Of a stretch of 64,000 bases of DNA, positions 48,093-58,957 are shown piece after piece. The notes below the pieces were generated by a model. The model saw nothing but the letters and a program-made list of their open reading frames with translations, had not been told where the DNA came from and made no database searches. Source of the DNA: Lingula anatina (taxonomy: Eukaryota; Animalia; Brachiopoda). The first letter of the stretch is position 1, and each line of letters begins with the position of its first letter. The position numbers and the translations under genes are program-made. Location: the NCBI GenBank assembly GCA_051362555.1, contig CM120646.1, positions 17,484,001 through 17,548,000 on the forward strand. The letters are read 5' to 3'.

Positions 48093-49415
48093 CTATATCT
48101 TTTCTGTTGAAATATATCCCATTGTCGTCTTTTTAGTCTTCTCATGGGTTCTAAGAGCTAGATTGAAGTAAGAAAAGTAAAACAATATTGTGTCCTTTAA
48201 TATGTCCCTTGATGTGTATTATAGGTACAATAACTGAATTTGAAGGTATGTTTCTTAATGAGGATACATATACAAATATCCTTCATATTTTTAGAGACCA
48301 AATTGAAACATTTCTATAGCAATATCTCTATGGTATTTGACCCCAGAACTTGGTTCAACTTGTGAAACTATAGGCCTACGGGGTTCCTTTGACAATGAGA
48401 TTCTTTCCCTTACTAACCACTTCACTTCAATATACTGATGAACCAACACTGATTTTCGGCCTCTTACTCACCTCTGGCAGAAGAAGACCCTGATGCCCCT
48501 TTGTTTTCTGCACCTGCAAAACAACTTGGTAGCCACTGGCACCATGCCGCACGTGCAGCTGACTTCATGAAGCAGTGGAAAATGAACAAAAAGAGGCCCT
48601 GAAGGGAGTTAAAGATTGCAAACAGGTAATGGAACACCATAAACTTGGCACTGACGGTGAGGAAAGCGAAGCCCCAAGTGAGCCCCAGAAGCACGACCAT
48701 GCTGCAGGTGCCCTTGACCTGTGACGCCACTGATGACGTCTTGACACTGGTAATTTTCCTTTGCTTGGCATGACGGCGGATTTGACGAAAGACCAAAATG
48801 AAGCTGACGAAATTGAGAACAATCGTCAGTCCAATAGGTGCTATAACTGTGATGTACATGGGGACGGGAGTCAACCAGCAACTGAAAATTCAAAATATAA
48901 ATTACTTCGATATTATATATACCGGTATCAATTGTTATAGACTCTAAATGAAAAAATTCTATGATCTCAAGTGGGTCTGTTTTACTTTTAAAAAAACTTT
49001 GGTTAAAGGACCCAGTGTAAGGATTTACCCCGAAAAATTCCATGGGGGTAAACAGTACTTTTTACTCTGAATAACCAACCTTTGATCCTCGTTTCCTGAC
49101 ACCTGTCATTTCTCTATAACAAGCACTAACAGTAAATTAAACAAATATTGCCACATCACATCTGTACAAGACTGGGTTCCCACAGATTTGGATCGATCCA
49201 TCTGGATCGACCTAACTCCCTGAGGGTTCACACTAAATTGCTGTCAGCTTCTGGGAGCTGAGCATGCACAAAAGTTAATTACCCCCTTACAGCTTTTAGT
49301 AGTCGGGGCAGGCACTTAAGCTGGTTAAGCTGACAGCAATCTAGTGAGACTCCCCGGGGGATATATTGATCTAAATATCTGTGGGAATGGTCTCTTAGTC
49401 TTGTTTATACACATA

Positions 49416-49452
<37 letters not shown>

Positions 49453-56000: not shown

Positions 56001-58957
56001 AAAGTGCAAGTAAGCTTGTCCAGTAAAAATCTGTATAACATTCTGTTCCTGGCCACTAGTTCTGCTGAAAGTTTCTAATGTGACAGATTCTGCTGTTCCA
56101 AAGGACCTAAATATATAGAATTTAAAATTTTGGGCAAAGACTCAGACATATCTCTTGCATTACTTTACAAAGAGAGAGAGAGAGAGAGGTGGAGAGGAAA
56201 AAAAGAGAGAGGGGAAGAGAGGAGGGAGAGGAATGTGTGTGCTCATACAGGTTCCTTACCCCCAAAACCTTTCTTTCCTATCCTCACTCGTAAATGCACA
56301 GGTGTTCCAAGCTCTAAAATATTTGGGAGAGCTTTTGCATCTGGCAAAGTTTCTCTGTTTTTGGTCCCTGCTATTGTGTCCATTACGACCTCTGGCTTAA
56401 GATCAATAGGGTGGCCTGTTGATAGGCTAAAATATACTTTCTTCATTAAGTTGTCTGTAAATTAGTAAGACTGATGGTACCAAACATGACAATTCTTTTT
56501 TTTCTTATTTTTTATTATTTTTATTGCTAAACCACATAATTAGCAAAAGCATCTGAGCACGTATTGATACAATTGCCTAAAGTAACTTAGATCGAAACAT
56601 TTTATAAAGGGTTTCCTCAGCTAAATAATAATTTGCAAAAAGCTTTTAGACTGAAACAGTAGTGCTAGTTTAATGTTAGATACTGGCAATCGATTGTCCA
56701 ACCTCAGCAGTCTCTGGTTTGCCAAATGATTTGTGAAACAAATAATTGCCCAAACTTATTTTTTTTTGTAGATTAAAAAGCCACTCCATGGGATTTCCCT
56801 ACCCAAATGAAATTTCAGAGGTTCTCTTCACGTATCTGGGCATACTTTGTTTGGTTATGATCTTCTCAGCCATTTCCAGCATGCAACATGCTATTATACA
56901 TGGTGAAGGGTTGCAATACAAAACACCCCACCATTTTTTTGTGTGAAAACGAGACAGTGCGTGTGATATTAGAGATGATGTTAATTTGACTGTCAGTCAT
57001 TAAAAATGAAACAAAACATGGAATCTAAGTATAAGGGTGGGTCAAGCAACAATTTGTGAGTAGTAAAAATTGCTCTTCACTCTAGGAAAATTCTGTTTGG
57101 TGGGAAAATGTGGGTCAAGCAACAATTTGTGAGTAGTAAAAATTGCTCTTCACTCTAGGAAAATTCTGTTTGGTGGGAAAATGTCCTGGTGGGGCACTTT
57201 AAGCTTAGTATCTCGGTCTAAACAGAAACTACAGTGTAAATTACCTCAGTTGACAAAATGTCAACCCATAGCACTGTTGAATGTGCTGCGGTTTCAAATG
57301 ACTTACTTCCATGGCTGAAGTCCTACATCCAGAGTTGTATTAGTGGCATATTCTTGATATCCACAGTCTATGGTGAAAACTGTGTCTTCTGCTTTACGGA
57401 TGTATGGATGATGTACAGCAAAAACAACAATAGGCCCACTCTCCTGTAAAAACAATAGTTTACATAACTATTAATAAGTTTGTAAAGATTCATTTTTTGT
57501 GAAGAAAATGTATACGTAACTTGATAAATACTCTGTAAAAATTTTACAGGGTCCAATACACATGTATGATTTTTTCCTGTTTTGTTTCAGAGGAATTAAT
57601 TACCAAAATACCTTACTGATCTTTAGAGTGTCTTTCTCCTAATTTAAAAAATTCATACTCAAATTTTGACCAGACAAGATATAAAGTGATTCTTTTTAGT
57701 TTTTTACAAGAACAAATCACAATGTAAATGCAGAAACACAAAGCTTACAGAAATACCACATGGATTTCTCGAGGTCACTTCCACCATAAGTTCCAAGTAT
57801 CCATCTTGGTTTGCACTGTCATCATAGCAACTTCTAGTGTTTTCGGCATCTTTTATATAAATTTTGCTCCATGAAGCAGTTAGGTAATTTGAATGTCTTG
57901 AACGAATATAGAATATCCTCCTGTTTGCATCCAGGATACACTGGTAATCCGCTAAAATGATTGATTCTTAATCATTGGTTATCACAAACAAATTTCAAAT
58001 GCAGGGGTGGACAGAAGCTGTTTTCTGGGTCTTACGGAAGGCAGTCAGAATTTTTTAAGTTTACATTGATGGGCAACTATTTTTTTCTGTCAGAAGACAG
58101 TCAAATGGAGGTTGGATCAACAAAGATAAGTTGGAAGACTATTAGAAAATACCTCTGGATCTCCTAAAGTACCAGTTACTTCAAACATTTCATTATAATT
58201 TCAAAATTTAATCTCAAAAATCAAACTTTCATCTTGAAACCAACACAATGCTCTGGACTGTCAGATCATCTTGATTAAGAAAAATGGAGAAAATAATTTT
58301 TTTTTTTGTCAAATATTTTGAGCATAATAATCAAATGCAAAAAAAGACTAACAGTTGGGAAAAGCCAGTTAAAAATAAAACAATTAGAAAACAACATTAC
58401 CTGTTTCAGCAACAGCCGCACCAATGAATAAAAGCTGATAAACAGAAACAATATTTATCTTTATAAAACCACTACATTTCTGTGCTGAATGATATTGATA
58501 TATGACACATTAACTTCATAGTAATCTAAAACACAGTTCATTTGGACAGCAAACATCGTGCCTTATACTAATCTCACATTTTGAAAAGGAAAAGTACATC
58601 TGCATTAAGATTTACCATAAGGTAAAGGGTGTAATATCTGGCAGATTATGACCGCACTAATAGTAATATAAAGACCCCAAGACATAAATGTAAACGTTTT
58701 AATTTACATTTGATTTATACATGCATCGATCCAGCCATTCAAAATATTGTATAAGTATGATAGTATTAGTACCAAGGCCGAAAACTGTGACAAAGTCCCT
58801 CTTGGCTTTAATTTTACCGTCACGGTCTTAGTGTGATAATTGTCCTAGTGCGGTCTGTTTGTCCGGTAGTCCTCTTTGGTAGATCCCAAATTATGAACGT
58901 TTGCTTTCAATCAGCTGATTACAAAAAGCAACAACTTACCACCAGCAGCGGTGCCAT
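48093..58957 (-). CDS. Adhesion GPCR (ADGRG2/4/6-like 7TM) with N-terminal ZP module: SP-ZP-furin-EHP-HormR-GAIN/GPS-7TM; exons 58957-58940, 58434-58401, 57951-57749, 57443-57307, 56426-56260, 55790-55706, 55125-54942, 54682-54556, 54378-54234, 53867-53758, 53511-53283, 52821-52644, 52317-52159, 51816-51646, 51372-51220, 50898-50771, 50428-50311, 50003-49859, 49554-49473, 48881-48472, 48157-48093
   Basis: Signal [15 protein letters not shown]. HormR-like [18 protein letters not shown]...LPC...ATRTC...[18 protein letters not shown]...GGWSNYGC...[14 protein letters not shown]. Class B2 7TM motifs [41 protein letters not shown]. The last exon is tentative; AATAAA lies at ~47990. Confidence 0.88.
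49170..49394. mobile_element. Degenerate foldback element in aGPCR intron
   Basis: ttcccacagat...cactaaattgctgtcagctt is inverted relative to aagctgacagcaatctagtg...atctgtgggaa. Confidence 0.55.
57037..57184. repeat. Perfect 73-bp tandem duplication (intronic)
   Basis: gtgggtcaagcaacaatttgtgag...ggtgggaaaat starts at 57037 and again at 57110. Confidence 0.95.

Follow-up and report, generated by a model that had tools for sequence, protein, structure and literature searches.

An adhesion G protein-coupled receptor with an apparently new zona pellucida-type head in the brachiopod Lingula anatina

Zona pellucida (ZP) modules are the building units of egg-coat and urine filaments. In uromodulin, as described in the accessible text of PMC7737619, the external hydrophobic patch (EHP) forms the last strand of the ZP-C half and part of a propeptide; once the chain is cut ahead of this strand, its place can be taken by another subunit's linker, and the incoming ZP-N half is bound at its fg loop and R415 by the FXF motif. 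The same cut frees the ZP module from its anchor upon filament entry, with EHP release and incorporation coupled at the plasma membrane. Assembly requires membrane anchoring, nascent filaments stay membrane-bound via uncleaved subunits, and uncleavable uromodulin is dominant-negative, blocking filament growth through its ZP-N (PMC7737619, accessible text). Of the adhesion G protein-coupled receptors (GPCRs), human GPR126 carries a furin-cut, still associated SEA domain just before its HormR domain, according to the accessible part of PMC6954182. Here, we describe a gene of Lingula anatina (Brachiopoda) that is predicted to place a ZP module at the head of an adhesion GPCR. It lies in a stretch of 64,000 nucleotides, hereafter the window (assembly GCA_051362555.1, contig CM120646.1, positions 17,484,001 to 17,548,000), within which all coordinates below are given.

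The receptor gene comprises 21 exons on the minus strand (58957-48093), and all of its introns are GT-AG with compatible phases. The spliced frame of 3048 nucleotides encodes 1015 amino acids with a single, terminal stop codon, in the order signal peptide, ZP module, furin-type RQRR site, EHP-like strand, HormR, GAIN with its GPS (HL/T, the slash marking the cut), and seven-transmembrane (7TM) domain. The N-terminal 20 residues, the signal peptide, are hydrophobic, and the next hydrophobic stretches begin at residue 715, with the 7TM domain. Searching with the large 7TM exon recovered a near-identical RefSeq protein from the same species, XP_013391984.1 (1016 amino acids), in which the same exons are joined and the N-terminus is the same. 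It differs from our model at 11 places, namely one added Arg and ten substitutions, and two of these differences fall in the ZP part. The window thus carries a different allele from RefSeq, and the frame is intact in both. An initial annotation, made from the DNA letters alone, had spliced ZP exons at 57951-54556 in frame onto the HormR, GAIN, and 7TM exons and quoted a four-Cys ZP-N-like region, a ZP-C-like region, RQRR, and an EHP-like strand, and its coordinates, splicing, and motif positions were all correct. The open frame, XP_013391984.1, and an RNA joint together support a ZP-HormR-GAIN-7TM architecture in one protein, which we hold with high confidence.

RNA reads from four runs labelled as the same species (X1, X4, X6, and X7) were mapped over exons 8-21, which include 13 modelled introns; the basis for exons 1-7 and the junction between exons 7 and 8 is the open frame, the splice sites, the paralogues, and the model in RefSeq. 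Nine of the 13 introns were seen as joints in run X1, each exactly at its modelled place. These included the joint that had been singled out for checking, 54556->54378, which connects the RQRR/EHP exon to the HormR exon and was crossed by three reads with three starts and 48 letters on the short side. The joints 9->10, 10->11, 16->17, and 17->18 were not among the X1 joints; a skipped repeat lies directly beside one of them. In X1, depth per exonic base was ~16x on exon 8, ~17x on exon 9, and 6-29 across exons 10-20 (a 5-nucleotide sliver aside), and it was zero in two wholly intronic bins. First mates lay on the plus strand, as expected for minus-strand RNA in a stranded library. All X1 reads carry three substitutions, at 52781, 52808, and 52811, which by codon count are those of the RefSeq allele. 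Runs X4, X6, and X7 gave no cover of receptor exons and covered repeats only; receptor expression is therefore restricted. Repeats at 49190-49370 (intron 19) and 47550-47800 (downstream) had depth in all four runs, on both strands and with many loose ends, and are dispersed elements outside the receptor transcript.

We considered whether two adjacent genes, one encoding a ZP protein and one a receptor, are joined by read-through or by gene prediction, with the chimera a minor product. Several points weigh in that direction and against a single protein: the key joint is seen in one of the four runs and at lower counts than the other X1 joints (7-14 reads each), four of the 13 joints were unseen, the mapping began at exon 8 with the 7->8 junction outside it, and RefSeq is the sole outside model. 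However, depth is equal on exons 8 and 9, the intron between them measures just 177 nucleotides, and the frame is intact in two alleles. The mapped stretch also ended 115 nucleotides beyond the joint, which may lower the joint count. Residues 250-420 of the receptor contain no Met, and neither intron 8 nor intron 9 offers a hydrophobic terminal exon (best 19-residue hydropathy, 0.79); in a two-gene model, the receptor part would thus lack an evident start and the ZP part an evident end. We therefore regard read-through as very improbable, although an alternative first exon could lie within intron 7.

The body of the receptor matches known adhesion GPCRs closely. Pfam placed 7tm_2 at residues 718-956 (168 bits; E value in Table 1) and GPS with E=3.2e-15 on the whole receptor and E=2.5e-17 in an exon-level search. 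The HL/T autoproteolysis motif and the Stachel strand fall within the 10-residue stretch 691-700, where cleavage is predicted from the motif only. The best solved relatives of the body are ADGRG2 (E=1.1e-85; alignment to ADGRG2 429-976), G6, and G4, and the ADGRG6 ectodomain 6v55 matches residues 333-704 (E=8.2e-31). The expected Pfam domain HRM had no match on the receptor itself, but residues 322-386 align Cys for Cys (four Cys, two Trp) with the HRM region of P0002, a protein of the hemichordate Glandiceps talaboti (HRM E=1.2e-4 there). P0002 is the next closest receptor, and its own HormR-GAIN-7TM is preceded by a similarly unusual head, of Ly6/uPAR-like type (E=0.0026, below cut-off). By homology, then, the Lingula protein is an adhesion GPCR of ADGRG type.

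RefSeq names XP_013391984.1 "adhesion G-protein coupled receptor G6", and its record includes a precomputed VERL_C match. The receptor does share the HormR-GAIN-7TM core and HL/T GPS with ADGRG2, G4, and G6, above all with GPR126/ADGRG6 (PDB 7wui, 21du, 6v55), and its ZP module can be compared with the furin-cut, associated domain before HormR in human GPR126 (PMC6954182, accessible part). We rejected orthology to ADGRG6, as GPS-7TM identity is ~45% to G2, G4, and G6 alike. Moreover, the CUB, pentraxin, and SEA domains of the ADGRG6 ectodomain had no match at E<=1 in Pfam over the whole receptor, which has the ZP module in their place. The RefSeq name is thus misleading, and the protein has been annotated but apparently unremarked.

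Ten Cys characterize the ZP module, at residues 22, 59, 82, and 112 in the ZP-N-like region and at 196, 216, 260, 265, 273, and 282 in ZP-C. RQRR at 286-289 is the sole R-x-[RK]-R in the protein, and the EHP-like strand spans residues 301-311. Over the whole receptor, Pfam matched VERL_C with E=4.6e-7 and 30.4 bits (cut-off 27.2). Against 1.84 billion representative sequences, the ZP part had five matches: itself, the neighbouring ZP gene product XP_013392004.1 (paralogue B; the window also holds paralogues A and C), an abalone VEZP16-like protein, and ZP proteins of Octopus and Owenia. None of these, the receptor itself aside, is longer than 481 amino acids. A profile built from these matches (A1) found only uromodulin and GP2 in the PDB (five of five matches, best E=2.7e-6) and neither betaglycan nor endoglin, with the best alignment beginning only at the end of ZP-N. 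In an AlphaFold model of the ZP part, the first seven Foldseek rows and first three VIA rows were ZP structures, covering the ZP-C half only; betaglycan ZP-C was at rank 7 (E=0.053). Two Arg of the cleavage site are invariant in eight of eight aligned sequences. The EHP-like strand was modelled as a strand with a predicted local distance difference test score (pLDDT) of ~30, and an alternating hydrophobic stretch occurs at the aligned place in four of four ZP genes in the window.

Other results weigh against a ZP assignment. The Pfam family PF00100 (Zona_pellucida) fell below its cut-off (15.0 vs 24.6 bits, E=0.027). AlphaFold models were poor (mean pLDDT 35 over the whole chain and 44 over the ZP part, with values below 50 in ZP-N), and fold matches were weak (Foldseek E of 0.014 or worse; Z <= 6.1, root-mean-square deviation 3.6, 108 aligned). 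The complete ZP module of the initial annotation therefore stands in part: we consider the ZP-C half established by VERL_C and the uromodulin/GP2 profile, and the ZP-N half likely, given its four Cys, 34% identity to paralogue B, and gene structure, with no confident fold.

Alignment through profile A1 suggests that the elements used in uromodulin polymerization are largely kept. The last ZP-N Cys and the internal hydrophobic patch (IHP) are 30 residues apart in the receptor and 31 in uromodulin, and L123 aligns with L435, GLQP with ALQP, and K102 with R415. Three details count against a polymerizing module. The FXF motif reads F-A-L in the receptor, compared with F-S-F in paralogue B, F-K-F in paralogue C, and F-H-L in abalone VEZP16; the donor strand has two Thr where uromodulin has Met and Val; and it carries an N-glycosylation site (N120). 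We suggest that the head of the receptor looks fit to join a filament, while its tail is less certain. The receptor shares its signal peptide, four-Cys N half, full-length linker, and six-Cys ZP-C with uromodulin, GP2, ZPD, and the abalone vitelline-envelope proteins of the VEZP16/VERL_C family, and, as in these precursors, a polybasic site and EHP-like strand are followed by a membrane anchor. It differs from them in its F-A-L and in having an anchor of ~700 residues rather than a GPI (glycosylphosphatidylinositol) link or one helix, and it is a candidate for polymerization.

The N-terminal domains of adhesion GPCRs usually bind ligands. The ZP module could accordingly be a non-polymerizing, ligand-binding head, like that of betaglycan (TGFBR3) or endoglin, through which a soluble or cell-surface partner activates the receptor. 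The altered FXF, the polar and glycosylatable donor strand, and the presence of betaglycan ZP-C among the fold matches fit this explanation, and betaglycan and endoglin likewise carry a ZP module on a signalling-related membrane protein. However, these two are single-pass, non-polymerizing co-receptors with minimal linkers, and the linker and elements of the R415 and L435 type are tied to polymerization (PMC7737619, accessible text), whereas the receptor has seven transmembrane helices, a full-length linker, equivalents of L435 and R415, and a kept cleavage site, as in polymerizing modules. F-x-L also occurs in the abalone egg-coat protein (P0122), and the sequence profile finds uromodulin and GP2, not betaglycan or endoglin. 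We judge a purely ligand-binding head to be improbable.

We propose instead that the receptor acts as membrane anchor for a ZP precursor, one that would join a ZP matrix and signal when the matrix pulls on or removes the ZP part, a reading that could equally prove right or wrong. Two cleave-but-hold latches are predicted to act in series, the EHP in ZP-C (after the RQRR cut) and the Stachel in GAIN (after HL/T self-cleavage). The uncleaved receptor would dock, through its ZP-N and its linker, at the growing end of a filament composed of paralogues such as B, hold that filament at the membrane, and pass tension to GAIN. The coupling would end once RQRR is cut and strand exchange passes the ZP subunit on to the filament. 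After cleavage, the receptor would keep its tie to the matrix only for as long as ZP-C retains the EHP strand; a lasting tie would need an uncleaved receptor. In a more specific form that we consider possible but doubtful, the receptor would itself be a ZP filament subunit that caps the growing end at the membrane, with tension acting through the Stachel to give a G-protein signal and a protease at the EHP latch serving as off switch or reset. A receptor in or on a ZP matrix that reports its state had been suggested in the initial annotation, and we keep this as a proposal with the correction that the RQRR cut normally frees the ZP part (PMC7737619, accessible text). The accompanying suggestion of gamete binding was dropped; we rejected a gamete-specific role, as there was no evidence for it and nothing points to gametes.

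Further points weigh against the matrix-anchor proposal. If RQRR is already cut in the Golgi, the ZP part could be lost before any matrix contact. No orthologue of the fusion was found in our sequence searches, including that of 1.84 billion representatives, so that its conservation is conjectural. The first point leads to a further explanation, in which the fusion gave an ADGRG-type receptor a promoter and signal peptide: after an early RQRR cut by a furin-like protease, the ZP subunit would join the matrix alone, and EHP-HormR-GAIN-7TM would signal independently. There is a single canonical R-x-R-R site ahead of the EHP, and ZP precursors normally release a propeptide that bears the EHP (PMC7737619, accessible text). 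Invertebrate adhesion GPCRs also often gain unrelated N-terminal domains (PMC2246102, accessible part), and the Ly6/uPAR-like domain of P0002 sits at the same place. Against this, the coupling of EHP release to incorporation in uromodulin keeps the anchor engaged during assembly, and HormR and GAIN follow only ~ten residues after the EHP. We find this explanation unlikely. With two strand-exchange latches predicted in one chain, the protein offers a natural construct with which to study how cells follow the assembly or tension of their ZP matrix and whether a receptor can be gated by EHP release. Load is borne by ZP matrices such as egg coats, the tectorial membrane, and invertebrate apical matrices and is sensed by adhesion GPCRs, but we found no published protein that unites the two; a filament-capping receptor, if real, would be the first to connect ZP matrices directly with GPCR signalling.

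As the initial annotation had surmised, we found no characterized adhesion GPCR with a ZP module, although our sequence and literature searches were not exhaustive and fell short of an all-animal domain-architecture screen; ZP diverges fast, and five proteins were within reach. In a word-based homologue search with the ZP part, 2394 candidates of similar length yielded nothing but the protein itself and 832 shorter ones no match, but the search was insensitive and missed even paralogue B. Profile A1 detected no ZP in the 119 other adhesion GPCR matches listed (120 of 161, mostly fish; best E 0.81). In the ESM Atlas, the whole receptor had ten clusters listed, all under 0.9 and none with a ZP family. 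The literature searched, largely by title and the start of the abstract, included Lingula papers but few subscription papers and contained no ZP-bearing adhesion GPCR. There was none in the accessible texts of PMC6900090, PMC9290575, PMC4595640, and PMC2246102, the available part of PMC10855680 had unrelated mentions only, and the supplement of PMC9290575 had no 7tm or GPCR entry. The nearest parallels are amphioxus receptors with SMB, kringle, SRCR, and C-lectin heads and P0002, which, like the Lingula receptor, set a lineage-specific Cys-rich head on HormR/GAIN-7TM (PMC2246102, accessible part). None of the amphioxus heads described there is ZP ("zona" has 0 matches in that text), and none is a filament unit that assembles itself and brings its own release latch. 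We consider the receptor a member of the adhesion GPCR family with an apparently new ZP head, so far in one species, and we note that new heads on invertebrate adhesion GPCRs are common.

Table 1. Receptor exons and neighbouring ZP genes in the window.
Feature	Position	Strand	Evidence
Exon 1: start codon, first part of signal peptide	58940..58957	-	Gene model; N-terminus of XP_013391984.1
Exon 2: remainder of signal peptide, 34 nucleotides, phase 0-1, size as in paralogue B	58401..58434	-	
Exon 3: ZP-N-like region, Cys22, 59, 82	57749..57951	-	
Exon 4: ZP-N end (fg-loop basic residue K102, Cys112), interdomain linker start (L123, GLQP)	57307..57443	-	
Exon 5: linker end, IHP-like strand, ZP-C strand B	56260..56426	-	
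Exon 6: ZP-C with Cys196, 85 nucleotides as in paralogue B	55706..55790	-	
Exon 7: ZP-C core, Cys216/260/265/273, F-A-L at FXF position	54942..55125	-	VERL_C E=5.2e-6, exon alone
Exon 8: Cys282, RQRR (54655-54644), EHP-like strand (54610-54578), phase-1 intron after	54556..54682	-	
Exon 9: HormR-like domain, first part	54234..54378	-	RNA joint from exon 8; aligns with HRM region of P0002
Exon 10: HormR end, GAIN start	53758..53867	-	
Exons 11-15: GAIN ending in GPS; predicted HL/T site 51246-51238, Stachel strand from 51240	51220..53511	-	
Exons 16-20: 7TM domain of ADGRG type	48472..50898	-	7tm_2 E=2.3e-49
Exon 21: cytoplasmic tail end, stop codon; AATAAA downstream at 47993 and 47912	48093..48157	-	
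Paralogue A: ordinary ZP, polybasic site, EHP-like strand, one transmembrane helix	8761..12331	+	Coding exons from ZP-N on
Paralogue C: ordinary ZP, RRKR, EHP-like strand, one transmembrane helix	39006..45321	+	Coding exons from ZP-N on
Paralogue B (XP_013392004.1, 462 amino acids): ZP, RQRR, one transmembrane helix	59653..64000, runs off window	+	

Comparison with the neighbouring ZP genes bore out the homology noted at the outset and suggests how the fusion arose. Among the 1.84 billion representatives, the closest relative of the receptor's ZP part is paralogue B (E=6.5e-34), which lies head-to-head with it, the two start codons 696 nucleotides apart. The part of paralogue B within the window is identical to XP_013392004.1 (312 of 312 residues). 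The identity between receptor and paralogue B extends over residues 4-274, and the two share every one of the ten ZP Cys as well as the polybasic site; this retention despite deep divergence argues for selection on the fold. Exons 3-8 of the receptor have phases 1-0-2-1-2-0-1, a pattern found in paralogues A and C and also in the portion of B inside the window, and B also has the split signal peptide with a 34-nucleotide second exon. Beyond the phase-1 intron that follows the EHP, A and C have their transmembrane exon and the receptor its HormR exon. Because intron phases are shared, the HormR exon takes the place of the anchor exon, and the closest relative lies 0.7 kb away head-to-head, the fusion likely occurred by exon shuffling from a neighbouring ZP gene. 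In the simplest history, an inverted duplicate of a B-like gene would have been spliced onto HormR-GAIN-7TM exons at the phase-1 intron, these exons replacing the single-helix anchor exon. Domain shuffling has been reported to be frequent in Lingula, in the case of EGF-collagens (PMC4595640, accessible part). The gene cluster appears to preserve traces of how the fusion arose.

Other features of the cluster were also observed. The head-to-head arrangement of receptor and paralogue B over 58957-59653 suggests a shared bidirectional promoter, and the RefSeq start of paralogue B lies 13 codons earlier than in the window model. Paralogues A and C both end in the cytoplasmic motif TNPAF, which resembles an NPxF/Y sorting signal. 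A 134-codon open stretch on the minus strand (34592-34993) is Cys/Gly-rich, had no Pfam match, and is probably an exon of another gene. Inside the ZP cluster, a multi-exon gene on the minus strand (13800-22100) encodes a serine protease with CUB, TSP1, LDLa, and trypsin domains (Pfam, four exons), and it is a candidate sheddase for the ZP precursors by analogy with hepsin acting on uromodulin.

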